Assembly: GCA_943354835.1 (NCBI GenBank)
Contig: CALRDH010000003.1
Location: 12,939-76,938, forward strand
Length of the DNA stretch: 64,000 nucleotides
From: a candidate division WWE3 bacterium
GTDB taxonomy: Bacteria; Patescibacteriota; WWE3; 2-01-FULL-39-13
Direction of reading: 5' to 3'
Within the stretch, counting starts at the first letter, position 1; each line of letters begins with the position of its first letter. The notes beneath the pieces are model-generated. The model made no database searches, was not told where the DNA came from, and worked only from the letters and a program-made list of their open reading frames with translations. A program made the translations under genes and the position numbers. This document shows, piece by piece, positions 3,085 to 58,088 of this stretch.

Positions 3085-3855
3085 TCATATTACCTCAAGG
3101 GTTTGATCAATCATATCTGCACCACTTCCGTGTCTGACTTTTCTAACGCCTTCAAGATCGAAATCATAGATGCTATAAGATCCACCACCACCACTTGTCT
3201 CCCTATTTACCTGGACAAATAGCTTACTTGTTGCAGAAAGGTTGTTAGCATCTTTTCGCTTAGTAATACTAGGCTTTCCACTTATATTGTAGCTTGTAAT
3301 CAGTATTTCTCCTCTTCCATCTGGATGTTTATCTTTTAATCTTTCACGAAGAGTTTTCTCAAATTTATAAGCAACTGGATCTCCATCAAAGGTAAAAGCT
3401 TGTAGTTTATGTCCTGGGCCGATCATTGTTGCGTCTAGTCCTACATTCTGCTTTACTGGAAACCTTAGAAAACCTTTATTCCCAAACAGATTATTAATTA
3501 ATTCCGGATTCTTAAAGAATTTGTGAAGATCTGGATGAATCTTATTCAAATCTGCAACTGCACACATGGATTCTGCTTCCATTAGAACCGCGAATGGCTT
3601 TTCTTCAGGTCGATGCTTAACATTTCTAGTAAGATGAATTGCATCTGTGTTACGAGCATCAGCAATTAGGGCATAAACCTCACCCATACACACTGCAACA
3701 GGTTTACCTTCTATCACTACTTGCCTTACTACAAATTCAATAGAAACATCATCCTTGACCATATCAAACTCTAAATAGCCAGGAAACTCGCCTATACTAT
3801 CCACCGGTATGAAGTTGCTTGGTTCTTGTGTAGAATTTTGATCCACAATCAACAC
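3085..3855 (-). CDS. Divergent YrdC/Sua5-family protein (candidate L-threonylcarbamoyladenylate synthase TsaC-like, with insertions)
   Basis: 'GEVYALIADARN' aligns with YrdC 'TEAVFGVGCDP', 'KHRPEEKPFAVLM' with 'KQRPVDKGLILIA', and 'ITSYNISGKPS' with 'VSTSANLSGLPP'. Spacing is longer than canonical YrdC. tsaE and tsaD are in the same window. Confidence 0.45.
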   Translation of the reverse strand: MLIVDQNSTQEPSNFIPVDSIGEFPGYLEFDMVKDDVSIEFVVRQVVIEGKPVAVCMGEVYALIADARNTDAIHLTRNVKHRPEEKPFAVLMEAESMCAVADLNKIHPDLHKFFKNPELINNLFGNKGFLRFPVKQNVGLDATMIGPGHKLQAFTFDGDPVAYKFEKTLRERLKDKHPDGRGEILITSYNISGKPSITKRKDANNLSATSKLFVQVNRETSGGGGSYSIYDFDLEGVRKVRHGSGADMIDQTLEVI

Positions 3856-3945
3856 TCCTATTAATGGGAAAACTTAACACTACTCTCAAGTAAATGAGTA
3901 TAACTTATCTAAAAATGCTAGGCAATCTTAATATCTAGCTTAGGT

Positions 3946-4344
3946 TTACAAAGCTTTTAAGGCGGCTTCAGCACAAGCAACGTCTTGGCTTACGTCATGT
4001 GAGCCACCAACGCCTACCCCTCCTACTAAATTTCCGTTTTCCATAATAGGTAAACCACCTGCAATAGTTGTAAATGCTCCAGCTGATAGGTCTGAAACGC
4101 CATAGTACGGTTTTCCGGGTTCTGCATATTGAGCAATGCCTGCTGTTGGAAGTCCGATTGTTCCTGATGTATAAGCTTTAGGCCATGCAAATAACGGGCT
4201 AACAGATAATGCCCCATCCATACGGCTAGCCACGATTAGTAATCCCTTGTCATCTACCACATAGGTTGTAACAGTAACGCCCAATTCTTTTGCTTTTGCT
4301 TCTGAAGCTTCGATCATTTTTCTTGCTTTTTCAAGTGTAATCAT
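3946..4344 (-). CDS. GlcG/HbpS-like heme-binding protein (DUF336 family)
   Basis: 132-aa protein with a Gly-rich C-terminus ([37 protein letters not shown]) typical of GlcG/PduO-C DUF336. Confidence 0.7.
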
Positions 4345-4611
4345 AATTTTAATTCACCACCTTTAAGTTCTTTTCAAAATTTCCACTTTTACTAACACAT
4401 CATTGTGTTTTTAAGCTTTATCTATAAAGATTATAGAATAAAGATGATTAGCTTACAAAGACTTATAATTCCGAAACATCATTTCGGTGGGTTCTAATTA
4501 AATTAGCCGGTTTTTTGGCGAGATCATCATTACTATGGGCCATATCATGTTATAATTCTATTAACGTTAATCAAGAGTTCGTATTAATTGAATGATTATT
4601 AGTTAATCAAT

Positions 4612-7929: not shown

Positions 7930-9045
7930 ATGAAAATTGCAATTTATATACCAACGGCAAGCTTTTTTGTTGGCGGTGGGGAAGTAGTACCTTTGATGCA
8001 AGCCCAATATTTAAAGAATCTTGTAGACAGTGTAGATCTTATAACTCTTAAAACAGAAAAAAGAACCGATATATTTAATACATTTATAAAAAAGAATCCA
8101 GAAATAAACATTATATATGTTGACACACCTAGGAATTTTGAACAATTTGATAGAAAAGAGGTAACTCATAAACTAGGTCATGAAATGTATTTAGCCCTAT
8201 CAAGAGATCTTCAGGACATATTTTTCAAAAATAAATATGACTTTGTAATCACGCACTATGCACCTGCCGTGTTTTCGATTCCTGCAAATACGTACCAGGT
8301 TTTACTTCTTCATGGTGTACCAAAAGAAGCTGAGCAAATTAATCAAATAGCAGTAAATTCTGCAGACATGTTAATAGCCGTAAGTGAGTCAGTTAAGGAA
8401 GGATGGGAGAAACTTTTTACTATAAATAATGAAATAAATGTAATCCATAACGGTGTTGATACAAGAAGATTTGCTCCAGCTAACATTGAACAGGATATTG
8501 ATATTTTGTATGTTGGCAGACTAATTGAAATTAAAGGGGTACAGCATTTGATAAAAGCGATTCATTTGTTATCTAAAAAGCATAAGCTAAATATTTTAAT
8601 TGGTGGCGAGGGGCCTTATAAAGAATATCTGATGAGTGAAGTCAGGAACTTTGGGCTAGAAGATGCCGTTAAATTTGGGGGGTATATACCAGATGATGAA
8701 TTGTTAAATGTATATCAAAGAAGCAAGGTATGCATTTTCCCTTCGTATGAAAAGGAGGGCGTATTAACAACATTACTTGAAGCCTCATCTTGCGGAAAAG
8801 CTGTAATAACAAGTAACTGTTGTGGCATGATAGATTTAGTGAAAGATAATTATAATGGTCTTTTATTTGAGCCTAGAAATTATAAAGATTTGGCCGATAA
8901 GATAGAAAAAGTATATCTATCAAGTGAATTAAGAAACTTTCTAGGAAATAATGCTCGTAATGAGGTTGTTAAAAGCTGGAGCTGGGAAAAATCTGCATCT
9001 AGTCTACTGGATATAATTAATAAAAATTTCTATGCTACAAATTAA
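7930..9045 (+). CDS. Family 4 (GT-B) glycosyltransferase
   Basis: C-terminal 'KEGVLTTLLEASSCGKAVITSNCCGMIDLVKDNYNGLLFEP' matches the GT4 E-x7-E region. Rossmann-like N-terminal half. Confidence 0.75.
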   Translation: MKIAIYIPTASFFVGGGEVVPLMQAQYLKNLVDSVDLITLKTEKRTDIFNTFIKKNPEINIIYVDTPRNFEQFDRKEVTHKLGHEMYLALSRDLQDIFFKNKYDFVITHYAPAVFSIPANTYQVLLLHGVPKEAEQINQIAVNSADMLIAVSESVKEGWEKLFTINNEINVIHNGVDTRRFAPANIEQDIDILYVGRLIEIKGVQHLIKAIHLLSKKHKLNILIGGEGPYKEYLMSEVRNFGLEDAVKFGGYIPDDELLNVYQRSKVCIFPSYEKEGVLTTLLEASSCGKAVITSNCCGMIDLVKDNYNGLLFEPRNYKDLADKIEKVYLSSELRNFLGNNARNEVVKSWSWEKSASSLLDIINKNFYATN

Positions 9046-50772: not shown

Positions 50773-50958
50773 TTATTTCCTTTTTGATAACAAAATTACT
50801 CCGAACACTACAAATAAAAGTGGCCAAAGTTTCCACATGGTTTCCCATACGCCATATTCTATGATTCCAAAATTATTTAGGATCATTATAACCCCTAGGA
50901 TTATTAATATAACCGCGGCCCAAAAACCTGAGTTTAGTTTGTTTTCTTTTGTTTCCAT
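50773..50958 (-). CDS. Small two-TM membrane protein
   Basis: 61-aa hydrophobic ORF. Its start region overlaps the 3' end of the ThyA-like gene by 25 nt. Confidence 0.35.
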   Translation of the reverse strand: METKENKLNSGFWAAVILIILGVIMILNNFGIIEYGVWETMWKLWPLLFVVFGVILLSKRK

Positions 50959-52502
50959 GACTTGATTGTATCAAATTCTAACGGATTATCTTGTGTAAAT
51001 TTAAGACCTAATTTTATTGCCGTTTCGGCTCTTTCTAATTGCCTGCCAATATATAGTGCATTTCCTAAAGTTGATATGGCAAGTCCATTATCGATTTCAA
51101 ATGAAAGTAGTCGTGATGCATACTTTTTGTTTCCATCAATCCGCCATTCTTTTATTTCTTCGTTTCCCCTCGGTGTCATCCATCTAACAACGATTTCGTC
51201 ACCTTCGACCATTACGCTTAAATTTCCTCTAGGATCCCATTCGCAGTATCCTTTGTCATTTTTTTCGTATAGTTCTTTTGCATCCTGATAATTATGCTCA
51301 TAAATATGTGCCATGTTAGAAATTGTTATTAACGAGCCCATTTCGACACCAAGTTCACTTGCAATTTTTGATTGGAGTTTTCTTAGTGCAAAAGCGTTTA
51401 ATGGCCATGCGTTGTACATATCGTTGCTTCTGAAATATGCCGTTTGTGTTAATTTCCCTTCGTATATTTGGCATTGAATCAAAAATAAACATGGAGTTTT
51501 TGTAGGCGGCCTTTTTGGAAAAACATCTGTAAATGGATTTGCTAAAAGCGCGATTGCTCCTTTATCGTATTTGAAACCTTTTAATTTTCTAACGATTGAA
51601 ATAGCAACTTGATCAAATCCTCCGTTTGTAAAAAATTCATCGAATCTTTCAAGTTTTAACCATGGATAAATTTCTTTAAGGGCATCGATTTCCAAGTGTG
51701 CAAAGTTAAATAACCTTTCACCATATGTGTAATCCTCTGTATGCGGATCTGGATCAAAAAATCCTTTAAAATATTTTTCTAAATCTTCTTTTGAGAATGG
51801 CAGATATTCTGGAACATGCCAATTTTCTGGGTCTTCGTCTGTAACAACTGCAGTCAGATTTAGCATTTCTTTCATTGTTTTTGATGTATCAGAAACGTAA
51901 TTTATAACGGCTTCAGATTCTAAACCAAACATGCTTATGTGTTTTAGTATTGAAATATAGGCTTCAGCAATTGTAGGACGCCTTATTTTTGTGGAATCAA
52001 TTTCGCTTGGATAATTTTGTACATCGGCCTTTGGCGGATCGGGGAAAATCTCGGGCTCACGCCATTTTATAGGGGCTACCCTTTTTATCAGTATGTCATT
52101 AAGTTTCTCAACGCCTATCATGTCTATAACTTCTACGTTTTTGCGAAATGCCTCAAGTGCTTCACGTGGTATTTCCTTTTCGATTTTCGCAATGTCATCG
52201 CCGATTACTTTGTAATCGGCATCGACGCCATTTTTCATAAAACGCAAAAACGCTTCACCGCTTCCCATTAAATCACTTCCAACAAGATATAATTTTGTAA
52301 TAACTGGATTTGCAAGAATATTTCGTAATATGTAATTTATGCCTTTTTTTGTATAAAGCTGGCCGGCGATATAAAAATCATCGGGGTCAACCATTTTCTC
52401 TAAAGTTTCCTTTGGAGTCCACAAAGTCGCAATCGCAACACCTGAATCGGGATTTGATAAAGTCAAACGGTCCTTAAAATAAATCGGCCAAGACATAAAC
52501 AA
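50934..52502 (-). CDS. Thymidylate synthase (ThyA) family protein with long N-terminal (~300 aa) and C-terminal (~100 aa) extensions
   Basis: Catalytic core 'TPCLFLIQCQIYEGKLTQTAYFRSNDMYNAWPLNAFALRKLQSKIASELGVEMGSLITISNMAHIYEHNY' aligns with ThyA '[41 protein letters not shown] ... GDTHLYSNH' (Cys nucleophile, RS-D, N..AS, H-Y-NH). Confidence 0.6.
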   Translation of the reverse strand: MFMSWPIYFKDRLTLSNPDSGVAIATLWTPKETLEKMVDPDDFYIAGQLYTKKGINYILRNILANPVITKLYLVGSDLMGSGEAFLRFMKNGVDADYKVIGDDIAKIEKEIPREALEAFRKNVEVIDMIGVEKLNDILIKRVAPIKWREPEIFPDPPKADVQNYPSEIDSTKIRRPTIAEAYISILKHISMFGLESEAVINYVSDTSKTMKEMLNLTAVVTDEDPENWHVPEYLPFSKEDLEKYFKGFFDPDPHTEDYTYGERLFNFAHLEIDALKEIYPWLKLERFDEFFTNGGFDQVAISIVRKLKGFKYDKGAIALLANPFTDVFPKRPPTKTPCLFLIQCQIYEGKLTQTAYFRSNDMYNAWPLNAFALRKLQSKIASELGVEMGSLITISNMAHIYEHNYQDAKELYEKNDKGYCEWDPRGNLSVMVEGDEIVVRWMTPRGNEEIKEWRIDGNKKYASRLLSFEIDNGLAISTLGNALYIGRQLERAETAIKLGLKFTQDNPLEFDTIKSWKQKKTN

Positions 52503-52536
52503 ACAATACGGGAGATCACTAAAGGAGGCAAGGGCG

Positions 52537-52818
52537 TTAAGTCTTACTCTGAGTTCTTGAATTAAGCTCGGCTTCTATAGCTGATCCGTAACTTCCTGGA
52601 GGTAGTTTCTTTAGATCTTCTAGCTTGAAACTAACTAAAAGGTTATTTACAAATGTTGCGGCCTCTTCAGCAGTCATGCCTATTTCATCTGAAACTGCCT
52701 TGGACATAATAGCAATATTCGCAAGATTTGATCCATGGCCGTATTCTCCACCATCACCAGTTGAAGACATCGTATAACTATCTTCAATTGTTTCCATTTC
52801 GAGAGGTGAAATATTCAT
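52537..52818 (-). CDS. Small acidic hypothetical protein (93 aa), paralog of the upstream 73-aa protein
   Basis: Shares 'SDEIGMTAEEAATFVNNLLVS' with the upstream 'IDEIGCEYEPGEFDAIIDAIVN' (D-E-I-G...E-E...F motif). Local GC is higher than the surroundings. Confidence 0.35.
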   Translation of the reverse strand: MNISPLEMETIEDSYTMSSTGDGGEYGHGSNLANIAIMSKAVSDEIGMTAEEAATFVNNLLVSFKLEDLKKLPPGSYGSAIEAELNSRTQSKT

Positions 52819-52842
52819 GTGGGAGATTATACGTAAATATTT

Positions 52843-53064
52843 TTAGGTAACAAGGGCAAGCCTAGCACGAATTGCTAGTTGATAATCTTCAGGGAACACA
52901 GCTATACACCCTGGATTAGAAGCAAGTATCTTGCGATTTTGGTTTACAATAGCATCTATAATCGCGTCAAACTCACCCGGCTCATATTCACAACCTATTT
53001 CATCAATTTCACGAGCTGATGTAGCCGCCTGATCTAGATTATTTCTTTCATCCCCATGTTGCAT
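52843..53064 (-). CDS. Small acidic hypothetical protein (73 aa)
   Basis: Acidic ORF with two Cys. Begins 16 nt after the PIG-L deacetylase stop and lies 24 nt before the paralogous 93-aa gene. Confidence 0.35.
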   Translation of the reverse strand: MQHGDERNNLDQAATSAREIDEIGCEYEPGEFDAIIDAIVNQNRKILASNPGCIAVFPEDYQLAIRARLALVT

Positions 53065-53079
53065 CCATTTTTAATTCTC

Positions 53080-53823
53080 CTATATCTTCACGTGTTTTAG
53101 TCTTTCAAAATTCCTTCCAGGTTCAAGGTTTGTTTCTTCTAGGAATTCTTCTTTTATGTCTTCGGGAGATAGTGCATTTTCGTGTACCAATAGTGCTTTT
53201 TCTTTTATGTCCATGTATTTTGTGATTTCAAAGTATTTAACATCTGGATACGAATATGAGTCAGAAAATAGTAATTCTCTGACGATGTGAGGTTTTAATC
53301 CGATTTTTGAGAAGTGTTCAGGAAAAAATCCACGATCTCTTGAATATGGATATGTTGCATCGAGTACAATTGATGCAGTGTTTCTATGATCACGATGATT
53401 AACCCAGCGAGTTTCTTCATTGAATGTGTTAATCGGATCAAATGGATTATGTGTAATTATGATATCTGGCCTAAATTGCCTGATATGAAAAACGATTTTT
53501 TCAATATTTGGCATTGTATTTTCAACTTCACCATCTGGAATTCCTAAATTAAAATTTTCGGATTCTGGAATACCTAGTGCAAGACCTGCCAATATTTGCT
53601 CTTTAACACGGAGTTTTGCAAATTCTGCTTCAACAATATCATCTCTGTCTTGAAATCCCTTTCCACCGTTTGTAGTAACAATAAGCCTTACTTGTTTACC
53701 TTCGGCAATAAGTCTTGCGACAATTCCTCCACAAATAATCTCATTATCATCTGGATGAGCAGTGACAATCAAAACCCTACTCTTATCGCCAAAAACCTCG
53801 TTAAAAGAATCTTTAATTGACAT
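53080..53823 (-). CDS. PIG-L/LmbE family N-acetylglucosaminyl deacetylase
   Basis: 'VLIVTAHPDDNEIICGGIVARL' (AHPDDE motif), 'HRDHRN', and a Zn-ligand pattern of the LmbE fold. Confidence 0.8.
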   Translation of the reverse strand: MSIKDSFNEVFGDKSRVLIVTAHPDDNEIICGGIVARLIAEGKQVRLIVTTNGGKGFQDRDDIVEAEFAKLRVKEQILAGLALGIPESENFNLGIPDGEVENTMPNIEKIVFHIRQFRPDIIITHNPFDPINTFNEETRWVNHRDHRNTASIVLDATYPYSRDRGFFPEHFSKIGLKPHIVRELLFSDSYSYPDVKYFEITKYMDIKEKALLVHENALSPEDIKEEFLEETNLEPGRNFERLKHVKI

Positions 53824-53839
53824 GGTGAATTTATAACAC
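53794..53839. repeat. Direct repeat copy 1 (46 bp): promoter-proximal region plus first 12 codons of the PIG-L deacetylase gene
   Basis: aacctcgttaaaaGaatctttaattGacatggtGaatttataacac. Identical at 43 of 46 positions to 54669-54714. Confidence 0.85.
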
Positions 53840-53858
53840 TCTACATAACAAAAAGCTA

Positions 53859-54122
53859 TTAGAATCTAAATATTATTGGTAAAACTTGAATTATTGCAAG
53901 AATAACCCCAACAATAGATAGAATAGTTGTAACCTTAGTTAATTTGCTATTTTGAGTATTTAAATCAAGAATAGTCTTTCTCAATAGTGACATCTCCTTC
54001 AGAAGATCAATATTAATTTTTGCTAAAGTCGCAGTAACAGAAATGTGCTCTTGCTGTCCAGCATTGCCTGTTTGAGGATTTTTCTCTATTTTATTTAAAG
54101 TTTTTACTATCTCTTCGTGCAT
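53859..54122 (-). CDS. Small protein with C-terminal TM anchor
   Basis: 87 aa, helical, with C-terminal 'ILSIVGVILAIIQVLPIIF'. Ends 1 nt before the DHFR-like gene. Confidence 0.35.
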   Translation of the reverse strand: MHEEIVKTLNKIEKNPQTGNAGQQEHISVTATLAKINIDLLKEMSLLRKTILDLNTQNSKLTKVTTILSIVGVILAIIQVLPIIFRF

Positions 54123-54123
54123 A

Positions 54124-54648
54124 TTAGATCTCCACGTTTTTTTTAACTTTATATTTCAAATGGATTAGGTCTTCATCGTATTTATCTATGCTAATAAGCT
54201 CTAGTGCTAAATCAGCATCTACAGGTTTAAACAAATTGATTCCTCTACCCAAAATTAGCGGATGTACGCTTAAGATTACCTCATCAATCACGCCAGCTTT
54301 TAAAAATGATGCATTTATTATTCCACCACCGATTAGTAGCACAGAATTCAGTCCCCTTTTTTCAAGTTCTTCTAGTAGCTCGTTTGGAGCTAGATCAGTA
54401 ATAAATTTGGTTGGAGAGTCAACGTGTAAAGACTTATTCGTAGTAAGCACAACATTTAACTTATTATTGCCATATGGGAAATCATCTCCACTTACCTCCA
54501 TTGTTTTTCTTCCCATTACAATAGCATCTGAATTTTCTACATACCTCTCTAATTGGGCCCAATCGGTATCACACACCCAATCAGTACCATGATTCTGTGT
54601 TGCAATATAACCATTGGCTGTTATAGCCATGTATAAAGTTAACTTCAT
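54124..54648 (-). CDS. Dihydrofolate reductase family protein (RibD C-terminal domain-like)
   Basis: 'MKLTLYMAITANGYIA ... AIVMGRKTME ... LLIGGGIINASFLKAGVIDEVILSVHPLILGRG' is the RibD_C/DHFR-like signature. Confidence 0.7.
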   Translation of the reverse strand: MKLTLYMAITANGYIATQNHGTDWVCDTDWAQLERYVENSDAIVMGRKTMEVSGDDFPYGNNKLNVVLTTNKSLHVDSPTKFITDLAPNELLEELEKRGLNSVLLIGGGIINASFLKAGVIDEVILSVHPLILGRGINLFKPVDADLALELISIDKYDEDLIHLKYKVKKNVEI

Positions 54649-54668
54649 AAAATTATTATGCCATAAAT

Positions 54669-54714
54669 AACCTCGTTAAAAAAATCTTTAATTAACATGG
54701 TAAATTTATAACAC
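54669..54714. repeat. Direct repeat copy 2 (46 bp), forming a 17-codon uORF whose TGA overlaps the DHFR-like start (ATGA)
   Basis: aacctcgttaaaaAaatctttaattAacatggtAaatttataacac. Minus-strand translation MLIKDFFNEVIYGIIIL* terminates at 54645-54647, overlapping ATG 54646-54648 of the DHFR-like gene. Confidence 0.85.
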
Positions 54715-54771
54715 GAACTTACAAAACGAATTATCCTAAAATGAAAAATGTGGTAAAAATGTAAATCCAGT

Positions 54772-55989
54772 TTAATAATTCTTGTCTTGTACTCTCAAAA
54801 TATATTTCTCCAATAATGGAACTGCAAAAGAATAATTTCCGTTACTATCACGATACAATAATCCTGCAGCAATTAACCTTTTGAACATTTGGCTAACCTG
54901 AGATCTACCAAAGCTTTTCACTTTACCTCCCTCAGATAAAGATACAATTTCATGCACTTTAAATTTTGTTTTTCCTGAATTTGCTATTAAAGTTAATAAA
55001 TCCCTTTCCCTCTCTGTTGCTTTTGCCCACCTTCCCGAGAAAAAATCACTATCTAGTTTTTGAATAATTGCATCCATAGGGATAGAGAGTTCTTGCCCCG
55101 CACTTAATTGTTGTAGAAATACATCAAATACTTCACGACAGATATACTGTATAAAAAATGGATAGCCACCTGATTGTTGAGCAATTTCTTCAACTGCATT
55201 TTCGTTAAATCTTAAAGGGTGTTGTGACATTTCTACAGGTTTGAGTATCGCCATTTTACTCTCTTCTTTAGTGAGTTTCTCTAACATAACAACATGGAAC
55301 AATCTTTCAGAGTAAGTCCTTGTTTCCACCAAGTTAGCAAGTAACATAGGTAATCCTGTAAGGACAAGAATGAATGGTATGTTTTTCTTCTGAATATATG
55401 TAAAAACATCCAAAAGTAATGAAAGTGGATATTGCTTATCTTCTGAATGATCACTTAGAGTTTGTGCCTCGTCATACGCAAATACAAAACCCTTTATAGT
55501 CTGTAATGTTTCTAAATGTTGCCAGACCATTTCCAAAGTTGCTTTTAACTTATCGCTTATAAACCCAGGAATTTCAGCAAAATAAGCCACCAAGTAAGAA
55601 TAATTTAAGTAAACATCGCTTGTCTTTTTATCGTCACCAAACCCGATTTCGTTTTTTGCTATTGTACCGATCTTTATGTTTGATGTTATCAAAGCAATAT
55701 CTGTTAAAATCCTCATAGCCATAGTCTCTTCGCTAACGCTTACACTTTCAGCACAATCAGTACCTGCCCACAACCAATTATCTTTTCGCGCAACTGGTTT
55801 TAAGCTTTCCAATAAAACTGTTTTACCAATACCGCGCAATCCTGAAATTATCAAATTTTTTAAGATTGTATTTTGCTTGAGCAATTTTTCGAATTCTTGT
55901 ATTTCTAGGTTGCGTCCGGCTAAATATGGCGGCGTATGCCCAGCACCAGGTTTAAAAGGGTTTTCAAATGTTGAAATATAATTACTCAT
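54772..55989 (-). CDS. Orphan AAA ATPase (archaeal-ATPase/PF01637-like P-loop with C-terminal winged-helix region)
   Basis: Walker A 'ISGLRGIGKTVLLESL', Walker B-like 'FVFAYDEAQTL', and a C-terminal helical/wHTH-like tail. Confidence 0.55.
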   Translation of the reverse strand: MSNYISTFENPFKPGAGHTPPYLAGRNLEIQEFEKLLKQNTILKNLIISGLRGIGKTVLLESLKPVARKDNWLWAGTDCAESVSVSEETMAMRILTDIALITSNIKIGTIAKNEIGFGDDKKTSDVYLNYSYLVAYFAEIPGFISDKLKATLEMVWQHLETLQTIKGFVFAYDEAQTLSDHSEDKQYPLSLLLDVFTYIQKKNIPFILVLTGLPMLLANLVETRTYSERLFHVVMLEKLTKEESKMAILKPVEMSQHPLRFNENAVEEIAQQSGGYPFFIQYICREVFDVFLQQLSAGQELSIPMDAIIQKLDSDFFSGRWAKATERERDLLTLIANSGKTKFKVHEIVSLSEGGKVKSFGRSQVSQMFKRLIAAGLLYRDSNGNYSFAVPLLEKYILRVQDKNY

Positions 55990-55995
55990 ACAAAC

Positions 55996-56019
55996 AACGT
56001 TACAATGCTACGTAACGTT
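55996..56019. promoter_or_regulatory. Perfect 8-bp inverted repeat AACGTTAC-N8-GTAACGTT (candidate operator)
   Basis: aacgttac aatgctac gtaacgtt, directly upstream of the AAA ATPase start (55989). Confidence 0.4.
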
Positions 56020-56067
56020 AATCAACAGGCTAATACAGACCACACTACGTTCGTATTTTATTCGGGG

Positions 56068-56107
56068 CGTTACAAAGTGTTACCCCATGGGCTAACGCTT
56101 TGTAACG
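56068..56107. promoter_or_regulatory. 40-bp imperfect palindrome (18/20 arms) CGTTACAAAGTGTTACCCCA|TGGGCTAACGCTTTGTAACG
   Basis: The reverse complement of the right arm is cgttacaaagCgttaGccca, against the left arm cgttacaaagTgttaCccca. Contains the nested palindrome CCCATGGG and shares the CGTTAC half-site with the upstream inverted repeat. Confidence 0.45.
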
Positions 56108-56157
56108 TTTAAGATAAAATGTTGATATCACTTGCATTTTAACAATATGCCAATCGT

Positions 56158-56679
56158 CTATCCAACTGCACAAATTTCTAAATCTCTTAGTTTTGCCGTT
56201 TCAGTTTTGCAGTCGGTGTAAATAAATGAAGCGAATGCGGTTCCTTGGTTTTCATCAACGATGTATTTGATTAATGCTTTTACAGATGGAAATAAGTTAT
56301 CACAATTAGTTAGCTCTTCTTTTGTTAACCAAACAAACTCACCTTCTAAAGTTTGTTTAATTTCACCGGACTCATAGTCTCCAGAATAGTGAAAAATTAG
56401 CCAGTTTTCATTCGGTTTATGAGGTTCAATTTCTGTAACAACGGCTTCAAGACGAATATTTTTTACAGTCAGACCTGTTTCTTCCATTAATTCACGCTTG
56501 GAAGCCCTTAAAGGCTCTTCGTTTTGATCAACCTTTCCACCTGCAGGATGAAAAAAACCTGGAGCAATCTTTTTTTGCTCGGACCTTTTCAAAACCAAAA
56601 TCTTTCCATCCTTACGGACAAACATATTCGCACACATGACGATATTATGAGTATTTATCGCGGAATTAATCGATTGCAT
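56158..56679 (-). CDS. Nudix hydrolase
   Basis: Nudix box 'AGGKVDQNEEPLRASKRELMEETGL'. Confidence 0.65.
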   Translation of the reverse strand: MQSINSAINTHNIVMCANMFVRKDGKILVLKRSEQKKIAPGFFHPAGGKVDQNEEPLRASKRELMEETGLTVKNIRLEAVVTEIEPHKPNENWLIFHYSGDYESGEIKQTLEGEFVWLTKEELTNCDNLFPSVKALIKYIVDENQGTAFASFIYTDCKTETAKLRDLEICAVG

Positions 56680-56743
56680 AAAGGGATTGTATCGTAAAAC
56701 AGACCTAATTAACTACACAGACAGCATCTGGTAGAATAATTTT

Positions 56744-57190
56744 ATGTATCAAGATGTTTTAAATCAAAAGGCAAGGGATATTATTAAGGAGAATATTTAT
56801 TTATCACTTGGTACTGCCGATGTAAATCCTTGGGTTTCACCGCTTTTCTACTGCGTTGATCCGCAATATAACTTCTATTTTATTTCACAACTTGATAGCT
56901 TACATACTAGAAATATGACGAAAAAACCAAATGTTGCATTTGCTATATTTGATTCTCATCAAAAAGAAGGTGAAGGAAATGGAATTCAAGGAAACGGAAC
57001 AGTAAAGTTATTAGAAGGAAACGATTTAACTGAAGGACTAAAACACTACTCAACTACGTTCATTGAATTAGGAGCTGACCAACTATCGGGAAACGCACCT
57101 TATCGCCTTTTTAAACTCTCAACTGACAAATTTTACGTCCTGGATACAGAAGCAGAAACTGATAAAAGAGTAGAAGTATTTACAAATTAA
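56744..57190 (+). CDS. Pyridoxamine 5'-phosphate oxidase-like FMN-binding split-barrel protein
   Basis: 'ARDIIKENIYLSLGTADVNPWVSPLFYCVD ... FYFISQLDSLHTRNMTKKPNVAFAIFDS' is the PNPOx-like/general stress protein 26 pattern. Confidence 0.55.
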   Translation: MYQDVLNQKARDIIKENIYLSLGTADVNPWVSPLFYCVDPQYNFYFISQLDSLHTRNMTKKPNVAFAIFDSHQKEGEGNGIQGNGTVKLLEGNDLTEGLKHYSTTFIELGADQLSGNAPYRLFKLSTDKFYVLDTEAETDKRVEVFTN

Positions 57191-58088
57191 TAGAAAACCC
57201 ACGAATTTCATTAACATCTAAATATCTTGATAAAATAGCCAGATCTTTATTTGTAATTCGTACGCTCCAACCCAAATTATTAAAAATGCCTGATTGTCGG
57301 CCACCAATCGTAAAAGGCACGTAATTTAACACCAATAGCCCATCTTTATATACGAGTTGCTCAAAATATAAGGTAACCTTTATCCCTTCCTCTAGCCCTA
57401 TACCACTAGATACAATGGAACTCAATATTTTTGGCTGAAAGCCTTGTATTTGGATACCTCTAAGGTCATCTTTATCGAAATATTTAAATCCCATCTCAGT
57501 GATGTCTATAAATAAGCATTTTTTTGTTTTCTTAATATTCATAACCCCCATAGCACCACCAAATTGTTCAACGCTATCTAATAATTTACTTTTGACGATT
57601 GTTTCTATCGTAGATGCATTATTAGATCGAACTTTCTTACATTCCACTAGACATTCCTCAGATGGAAGATAAAAATCACATATCCTTCTACTAGCTTTAT
57701 TAAAGTTAGGATTAGATTTCAAGTCCAACACTTTGAAACCCTTAAGCCATAAGCCAGATTGAATTGCAATATTAAATAACCATCCAGGCATACCATTACT
57801 GAAATCAGAATCGCCTTTACTAAAATAATCTCCCATCTTACCCAAGTAATGCCTATCTTGAAATTCGAAATTCTGAATAGTGCTACCGGTTGCGGCAGAT
57901 AAAAAACCCGAATATAAAACATATTGTAAAAGCTGTATCCGATCATCAATAGTCCATTTATTTAATGATTTTTCTTCTAGTTCGGTAAGAAAATTTATAA
58001 GCTTAGTTAAATCCCCAGATGTACTGGCTAAACTAGGGTTTCCGCACGCATCTAACCATATTTTTTTTAATCTATCAAAAGGAACCAT
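57180..58088 (-). CDS. Hypothetical protein
   Basis: 302-aa ORF. No motif recognised. Confidence 0.4.
   Translation of the reverse strand: MVPFDRLKKIWLDACGNPSLASTSGDLTKLINFLTELEEKSLNKWTIDDRIQLLQYVLYSGFLSAATGSTIQNFEFQDRHYLGKMGDYFSKGDSDFSNGMPGWLFNIAIQSGLWLKGFKVLDLKSNPNFNKASRRICDFYLPSEECLVECKKVRSNNASTIETIVKSKLLDSVEQFGGAMGVMNIKKTKKCLFIDITEMGFKYFDKDDLRGIQIQGFQPKILSSIVSSGIGLEEGIKVTLYFEQLVYKDGLLVLNYVPFTIGGRQSGIFNNLGWSVRITNKDLAILSRYLDVNEIRGFSINL

Follow-up and report, generated by a model that had tools for sequence, protein, structure and literature searches.

Introduction

The established model of homology-facilitated illegitimate recombination (HFIR), by which displaced gene fragments are left next to inserted modules, has been proposed for the effector-immunity arrays of the Rhs, contact-dependent inhibition (CDI) and type VI secretion (T6SS) systems (PMC5361080). 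The studies of HFIR cited there include those of de Vries and Wackernagel (2002), Prudhomme et al. (2002) and Meier and Wackernagel (2003). Here we describe a related arrangement in 64,000 nucleotides of DNA from an uncultured candidate division WWE3 bacterium (contig CALRDH010000003.1, positions 12,939 to 76,938; assembly GCA_943354835.1), a stretch that is called the window in what follows. The promoter and first codons of a PIG-L/LmbE-family deacetylase gene are found there twice, as a direct repeat, and the two copies bracket a short segment with two genes, one of which codes for a protein resembling dihydrofolate reductase (DHFR). We consider that the second copy is probably, if far from certainly, a recombination scar, left by a one-off event in which homology served on the deacetylase side and the opposite end was joined illegitimately.

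The likeness to the Rhs, CDI and T6SS fragments has several aspects. In both cases a segment of a conserved gene serves as the homologous anchor while the other end is illegitimate, the displaced fragment of the resident gene lies beside the new module, and the site is a hotspot that varies among close relatives. By contrast, the fragment is here a 5' one, comprising promoter, ATG and 10 codons, whereas it is the 3' toxin tip or the immunity gene there. Furthermore, a single round of displacement is seen instead of an array, and the host belongs to the Candidate Phyla Radiation (CPR).

Integrated elements that are bounded by attL and attR offer another comparison, with tens of base pairs of a gene end on both sides of an insert and a target gene that stays intact. 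The present locus differs from them in that it lacks a recombinase, that the site does not recur in relatives, and that the insert measures only 826 bp and consists of two unrelated small genes. Leaderless messenger RNAs with short upstream open reading frames (uORFs) have been described in mycobacteria. Overlaps of stop and start codons in the form ATGA generally give tight coupling by termination and reinitiation (PMC6728339). The locus shares with these cases the stop-start overlap and an ATG placed 6-7 nt past a -10 box; the difference is that it is known here from sequence prediction alone. Finally, ORF-11 and ORF-18 at attI1 boost the expression of class 1 integron cassettes devoid of a translation initiation region (Hanau-Bercot et al., 2002, summarized in the review PMC8876359). 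There too a short open reading frame arising from resident DNA crosses a recombination junction, the insert supplies its stop codon, and ribosomes are fed to an inserted gene without a ribosome-binding site of its own, which for our locus is a prediction only. ORF-11, however, has a Shine-Dalgarno site and is part of a dedicated attI used by an integrase, while the start found here was copied from a gene, has a leaderless-type promoter and is accompanied by neither integrase nor attC.

The direct repeat

All genes of the region are on the minus strand, in the transcription order NUDIX, ATPase, repeat copy 2, DHFR-like gene, 87-aa gene, repeat copy 1 with the deacetylase gene, two small genes, and an MtrA-ThyA fusion. 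The features that bear on the duplication are these:

53791 to 53839, minus strand: repeat copy 1, native expression module of the PIG-L deacetylase gene, with an extended -10 element TGTTATAAA (53838-53830), the spacer TTCACC, the ATG (53823-53821) and 10 further codons
54666 to 54714, minus strand: repeat copy 2, orphan copy of the deacetylase promoter and 5' end, with its extended -10 element (54713-54705) and ATG (54698-54696) both intact
53840 to 54665, minus strand: inserted DNA between the repeat copies, 826 bp
53080 to 53823, minus strand: PIG-L/LmbE-family deacetylase gene, 247 aa, the conserved anchor
54645 to 54698, minus strand: 17-codon uORF, MLIKDFFNEVIYGIIIL followed by a stop codon, opened by the copied ATG
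54124 to 54648, minus strand: DHFR-like gene, 174 aa, RibD_C / DHFR_1 family
54655 to 54663, minus strand: candidate extended -10 element TGgCATAAT of the DHFR-like gene, 6 nt before its ATG (predicted)
53859 to 54122, minus strand: 87-aa gene, with a GGAG Shine-Dalgarno site and a start 1 nt past the DHFR-like stop

A repeat finder delimits the direct repeat as 49 nt (53791-53839 against 54666-54714), identical at 45 of the 49 positions and with a spacing of 875. It contains the 46-nt core, with 43 identities, that an initial reading of the bare sequence (the sequence-only reading) had pointed out. On the coding strand, copy 1 reads GTGTTATAAATTCACC-ATG-TCAATTAAAGATTCTTTTAACGAGGTTTTT, in which 16 nt precede the ATG and its ten following codons; the repeat thus holds 11 codons of the deacetylase gene and not the 12 first counted. 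Copy 2 departs from copy 1 by three C-to-T changes and one T-to-A change. The former are the three differences within the core, all G-to-A on the plus strand as had been remarked, and the latter falls in the 3-nt extension beyond the core. The likeness between the copies ends abruptly at both edges.

A chance repeat has been rejected: with the base composition of the window, about 1e-11 same-strand pairs of this quality are expected, and the other repeats of at least 25 nt are at most 82% identical, which leaves the 49-nt repeat as the only one of high identity in 64 kb. The source being a metagenome-assembled genome, an assembly artefact or a chimera might also be invoked, yet we give it practically no credence. 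Both copies, in the same gene order, are found in independent assemblies from three samples (ERR5863117, ERR3719140 and ERZ27280197) made with different assemblers. The corresponding contigs (L001 and L003, of 49 kb, from ERR5863117; L002 from ERR3719140; L004 from ERZ27280197) are 100% identical to the window across the region, and L004, a k=141 contig, covers both copies by itself. In addition, the four differences between the copies mean that an assembler could not have collapsed or confused them. An artefact of assembly, which the sequence-only reading had named among its possible refutations, is thus contradicted, and the repeat that it had noticed is confirmed.

Relatives at the same locus

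By the homologues of its deacetylase, the window falls in candidate division WWE3, within the Patescibacteria/CPR. Two sets of relatives share the position of the deacetylase gene and show what may stand beside it. The neighbouring features needed for the comparison are the following:

54772 to 55989, minus strand: AAA_16/STAND-like ATPase gene, in the same variable island
56158 to 56679, minus strand: NUDIX gene
50934 to 52502, minus strand: MtrA-ThyA-pterin-binding fusion

In the first set (L005-L007, WWE3 RIFCSPHIGHO2_01_FULL_35_17 and its relatives) the deacetylase is 80% identical and the flanks are the same: a radical-SAM gene and a methyltransferase gene border the locus at one end, and MtrA-ThyA, LemA, peptidase M48 and GatCAB at the opposite end. 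In the interval from methyltransferase to deacetylase, these genomes have Bro-N and a HicA/B pair, where the window has a 302-aa gene, PNPOx, NUDIX, ATPase, the DHFR-like gene and the 87-aa gene. In L005, nucleotide similarity to the window sets in again at 53838, a single base from the repeat edge.

The second relative, L013, is the sole match that came out of a scan of metagenome contigs with the repeat core. Its deacetylase gene is 88.5% identical to that of the window in nucleotides and 93.9% in amino acids, with 0.033 nonsynonymous (dN) and 0.61 synonymous (dS) substitutions per site. In this contig the 3' end of the NUDIX gene is joined directly to the deacetylase promoter, GAAATTTGTG being immediately followed by ATATAAATTAACCATGTCA; the repeat sequence is there in a single copy, and none of the ATPase, DHFR-like and 87-aa genes is present. 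L013 is colinear with the window as far as a GTG of the NUDIX gene (56171-56169), and again from the GTG that opens copy 1 (53839-53837). As a side remark, the last three codons of NUDIX in L013 are formed by the -10 box of the deacetylase gene.

Because it is absent from the orthologous position in L013 as well as in L005-L007, the 826-bp segment counts as inserted. The similarity of both relatives to the window starts within 1-3 nt of the upstream edge of the repeat, which is thus also where the conserved deacetylase block of L005 and L013 begins. The scar scenario proposed below would account for this without further assumptions, for two different island variants joined on a shared deacetylase anchor would have nothing in common before the deacetylase promoter. 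The stretch upstream of this promoter is accordingly a hotspot where genes turn over. More distant orthologues of the deacetylase (70-74% identical) have no synteny with the window, and a collection of representative genomes gives no match to the repeat core and has the deacetylase protein at only two loci, both non-syntenic.

The DHFR-like and 87-aa genes had been read from the sequence as an inserted or duplicated cassette, to be looked for in related genomes between deacetylase and ATPase. Insertion agrees with the absence of the segment from two syntenic relatives, but the two genes are not a conserved pair. Likewise, both genes are missing from both relatives as anticipated, but the ATPase gene is missing too, so that a state with the ATPase and without the cassette has not been seen. 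The broader proposal that the repeats are the footprint of a recombination event is supported, with the insert absent from two relatives and the repeat single in L013.

A gene start reduced to its minimum

What was duplicated acquires its interest from the way genes start in this genome. A census was made of the 62 non-overlapping open reading frames of the window, with the 2,087 other ATG triplets as background. Shine-Dalgarno-like motifs precede 7 of the 62 genes. At 19 of them (31%) the ATG is preceded by a -10-like hexamer that ends 4-10 nt ahead of it, most often with a gap of 6-7 nt, while the same pattern occurs at 6.2% of the background (binomial p=3e-9). The spacing between a -10 box and the start of transcription is well established, and it is the basis on which a leaderless transcript can be recognized. 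The census suggests that starts adjacent to a -10 box are the signature of leaderless or near-leaderless transcripts and that these are widespread in this WWE3 bacterium. The minimal expression unit of the genome would then be a -10 box abutting an ATG.

The deacetylase start belongs to this class, 6 nt lying between its extended -10 element and the ATG. Its orthologues are laid out likewise, with TGTTATAAAA, 6 nt and ATG in L005, and TGATATAAAT, 6 nt and ATG in L013; put more generally, TGTTATAAA or TATAAAT lies about 6-7 nt ahead of their ATG. Copy 1 can be considered the native expression module of the deacetylase gene because the orthologues keep this succession of -10 box, spacer and ATG. 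Both copies of the repeat fit the leaderless-type pattern, each with TGTTATAAA, 6 nt and ATG, and neither has a Shine-Dalgarno site.

The derived copy and its age

At three of the four sites where the copies differ, L013 has the base of copy 1, and at the fourth it has a third base. Read in the deacetylase frame, copy 2 would bring the replacements S2L, S6F and F11I. Its three coding changes are all nonsynonymous and they fall in a D-S/A-F-x-x-[IV]-F motif that the orthologues share. By this comparison, copy 2 is the derived copy; it is thus an orphan fragment that was freed of the constraint on the N-terminus of the deacetylase and is drifting toward AT.

The copies have diverged by 0.086 substitutions per site, whereas neutral change since the separation from L013 amounts to about 0.3 per lineage. 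The duplication would therefore be later than that split, although the estimate is rough, based as it is on four substitutions only. A date after the split fits L013 never having carried the cassette. At present the copies share perfect matches of at most 13 bp, which is probably too short for efficient homologous excision.

How the duplication arose

The favoured scenario, that of a scar, runs as follows. DNA from a related strain, incoming or used as a template and carrying the DHFR-like gene, the 87-aa gene and the deacetylase gene in this order, would have paired with the resident deacetylase gene, and its far end would have been joined within the resident gene after codon 11. As a result, the resident promoter and 11 codons would have become copy 2, upstream of the insert, and the intact start of the incoming gene would have become copy 1, downstream of it. 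Copy 1 would remain the working start of the deacetylase gene and copy 2 would be left as a drifting 5' fragment. Either HFIR or the repair of a break templated by DNA of a related strain could have followed this route, the exact recombination mechanism being one that we infer. Two features of the locus are those of a scar. One boundary of the insert is homologous to the resident gene while the other joint is non-homologous; and the displaced fragment is kept beside the insert, with copy 2 running through 11 codons before it passes into unrelated sequence.

Several points weigh against this account. HFIR, templated break repair and the Campbell-type integration of a small circle with 49 bp of homology fit the data alike. 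No donor in which the DHFR-like and 87-aa genes immediately precede a deacetylase gene came up among the homologues of these two genes or in the scans of the collections, and the nearest homologue of the DHFR-like protein is 58% identical and stands in another context. No genome with the ATPase gene but without the cassette was found, so that more than one order of events in the island is conceivable. Moreover, the state of L013 could itself be secondary, the outcome of a deletion between the GTG microhomologies. Lastly, all sampled strains are identical across the region, and for this reason selection on copy 2 is not measurable.

The main competitor as to origin takes the repeats for the attL and attR of a small site-specific mobile cassette, integrated as a circle by a recombinase acting in trans and perhaps still able to excise. 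Direct repeats of tens of base pairs that copy the end of a gene are typical of integrated elements, and a 49-nt repeat does flank the insert, even if the likeness is formal only. It also speaks for such a cassette that insertions upstream of the deacetylase gene recur in three lineages and are bounded at identical nucleotides, and that the adjoining ATPase is a member of a phage protein family. We nonetheless hold this origin to be unlikely. No transposase, integrase or other recombinase was found by Pfam in the 826 bp, in the island between methyltransferase and deacetylase, or in about 6 kb on either side. A second deacetylase 5' end is absent from the ten loci compared (L005-L013, L025 and L026), which stand for seven distinct orthologous sites, so that the island of L005, like the others, has no such flank; nor does a third or degenerate copy of the repeat exist in the island of the window or in that of L005. 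The repeat core is missing from viral contigs, where no close relative of the DHFR-like protein or of the ATPase was met either, and in metagenome contigs it turned up once, in single copy. The DHFR-like and 87-aa genes were not found travelling together elsewhere, and the 13 bp of perfect match left between the copies add to the difficulty. Site-specific recombination, which the sequence-only reading had put forward as an equal possibility, is thus disfavoured, given that neither the island nor its neighbourhood encodes a recombinase, that attC and terminal inverted repeats are lacking, and that the duplication does not recur at the ten loci.

Direct repeats around a short gene-bearing segment may also recall the target-site duplication of a transposon, or an integron cassette. 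Both are highly improbable. A length of 49 bp far exceeds that of target-site duplications (about 2-15 bp), terminal inverted repeats are absent (inverted matches between the inner 60-nt ends reach 6 nt at most), and the insert has genes for a DHFR-like protein and the 87-aa protein, none for a transposase. As for an integron, the 19 nt that separate the 87-aa stop (53859) from copy 1 (53839) are too few for an attC, which takes about 57-141 bp; no inverted repeat is reported in this interval; and there is neither IntI nor attI, with no match to the Phage_integrase family within about 6 kb on either side.

Expression of the DHFR-like gene

The copied ATG (54698) opens a uORF of 17 codons whose TGA (54647-54645) overlaps the ATG of the DHFR-like gene (54648-54646) as ATGA, exactly as the sequence-only reading had described it. 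Copy 2 keeps all the elements of a start that is typical of this genome, and it likely starts a transcript at or near the uORF ATG. By termination and reinitiation, the uORF could hand ribosomes to the DHFR-like gene; such a translational coupling is a plausible by-product of the scar.

It is another matter whether copy 2 was kept for this purpose, as a promoter with a leaderless uORF from which reinitiation at the ATGA would be the main route to the DHFR-like protein. This would be a selected expression adaptor, a proposal about function that is compatible with an origin as a scar. In its favour are the intact -10 box and ATG of copy 2 together with the overlap of the uORF stop with the DHFR-like ATG; the DHFR-like gene has no Shine-Dalgarno site in a genome where such sites are rare and where leaderless-type starts are the dominant recognizable signal; ATGA overlaps are generally tight couplers (PMC6728339); and ORF-11 and ORF-18, lying across the attI1 junction of class 1 integrons, supply a close precedent (PMC8876359).

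We nonetheless regard the adaptor as doubtful. Of the three possible junction frames, one gives the ATGA overlap, one a short uORF that ends upstream and one an in-frame fusion, and the exact overlap is thus expected by chance in one case out of three. Four random substitutions would spare the 13 promoter and ATG positions with a probability of about 0.28, by our own estimate, and selection has therefore left no visible mark. A predicted element of its own stands before the DHFR-like gene, TGgCATAAT followed by 6 nt and the ATG, which resembles that of the PNPOx gene, TGGTAGAAT followed by 6 nt and the ATG (upstream of the PNPOx gene at 56744 is TGGTAGAATAATTTT-ATG). The start of the DHFR-like gene is not masked by a significant mRNA structure (z=-1.4). 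No terminator-like site was detected between the start of the ATPase gene and the deacetylase gene, so that read-through from the ATPase gene into the DHFR-like gene is possible. Finally, this uORF is the only short open reading frame of the window with a -10-adjacent ATG that ends on a gene start by ATGA, and there is no second case that would make the combination a general strategy. The earlier proposal of a captured leader peptide is for these reasons possible and unsupported: one frame in three yields the overlap, the avoidance of substitutions has a chance of about 0.28, the gene has its own -10 element, and the arrangement occurs once. Two further searches came out negative. In a simple scan, sigma-70 and terminator sites were no commoner than in shuffled sequence, the scan being blind to promoters without a -35 box, and no known RNA family was recognized in 52000-57500.

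The genes of the island and other observations

The DHFR-like protein is above the thresholds of both RibD_C and DHFR_1. Its best relative of solved structure is the DHFR of Thermotoga maritima (1cz3, E=1.7e-14), and its homologues, at most 58% identical, are in unrelated contexts. A true DHFR would make metabolic sense because a ThyA-type thymidylate synthase fusion is encoded 1.6 kb downstream; the activity is putative. The 87-aa protein matches no family and has a hydrophobic C-terminal stretch, as judged by eye. A search of 5.8 billion clustered sequences gave only three non-identical relatives of the gene, with 69-73% identity; none of the three adjoins a DHFR-like gene, and one has a -10-adjacent start of its own. 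A conserved cassette of DHFR-like and 87-aa genes, considered as a candidate unit, was rejected, each gene standing alone in unrelated contexts elsewhere.

The AAA_16/STAND-like ATPase matches over its full length the phage family phrog_6841 (E=8.8e-53), which is of unknown function, and it has no match in PADLOC. The NUDIX protein matches there the candidate defence family PDC-S07 (E=1.2e-15), the only defence-family match among the genes of the island. Between the NUDIX stop and the ATPase start (55990-56157), palindromic CGTTAC/GTAACG motifs are dense, with 4 of the 11 occurrences of the window in these 170 nt. Examples are AACGTTAC-N8-GTAACGTT at 55996-56019 and an inverted repeat with 33-nt arms at 56055-56120. 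This spacer may be the operator or the terminator of the ATPase module.

On the other side of the deacetylase gene, a 73-aa gene (52843-53064, minus strand), which lies between it and a 93-aa gene, is absent from L013. In that contig the deacetylase stop is directly followed by the promoter of the 93-aa gene, and this makes a second small indel beside the deacetylase gene. The fusion found farther on (50934-52502, minus strand) is a protein of 522 aa in which an MtrA-like domain is joined to a methanogen-type thymidylate synthase (TIGR03283) and to a pterin-binding domain, DUF4346. According to gene calls and Pfam it is encoded in L005-L007 as well, and its N-terminus is visible in L013.

Two observations concern the contigs used for comparison. 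L026 is labelled 'uncultured Gammaproteobacteria', and at 8001-8720 it codes for a deacetylase with an N-terminus (VKIKDSFNEVFGDK) almost identical to that of WWE3; it is probably a mis-binned contig from Patescibacteria. A SpoU methylase gene that is intact in L016 (243 aa; 3639-4370) appears as two open reading frames (170 and 67 aa) in the colinear L018 (3662-4370), which suggests a frameshift or a sequencing error.

Significance

We see in this feature a fresh instance of the known orphan-fragment scar at an island hotspot, and not a new kind of system. Its unusual aspect is that the duplicated piece is what is predicted to be a complete leaderless-type expression module. If the adaptor were real after all, a copy of the start of the downstream resident gene would endow an inserted gene with a promoter and, by way of a leaderless uORF and reinitiation at ATGA, with an entry point for ribosomes, and the locus would be an integrase-free counterpart of the attI1/ORF-11 system of integrons. 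It is improbable, in our judgement, that a duplicated module made of -10 box, ATG and short open reading frame would be a portable and selected expression adaptor for foreign genes in CPR genomes poor in Shine-Dalgarno sites. What the locus points to is a fairly ordinary turnover of a genome island, in which the scar may incidentally aid the expression of the inserted genes.

To our knowledge, the mechanisms of gene gain have hardly been documented in the CPR. The locus provides a case, resolved to the nucleotide, of accessory genes being swapped beside a conserved gene in an uncultured bacterium with a reduced genome. If the orphan copy is active, a by-product of recombination could at once give a new gene both transcription and ribosome loading.

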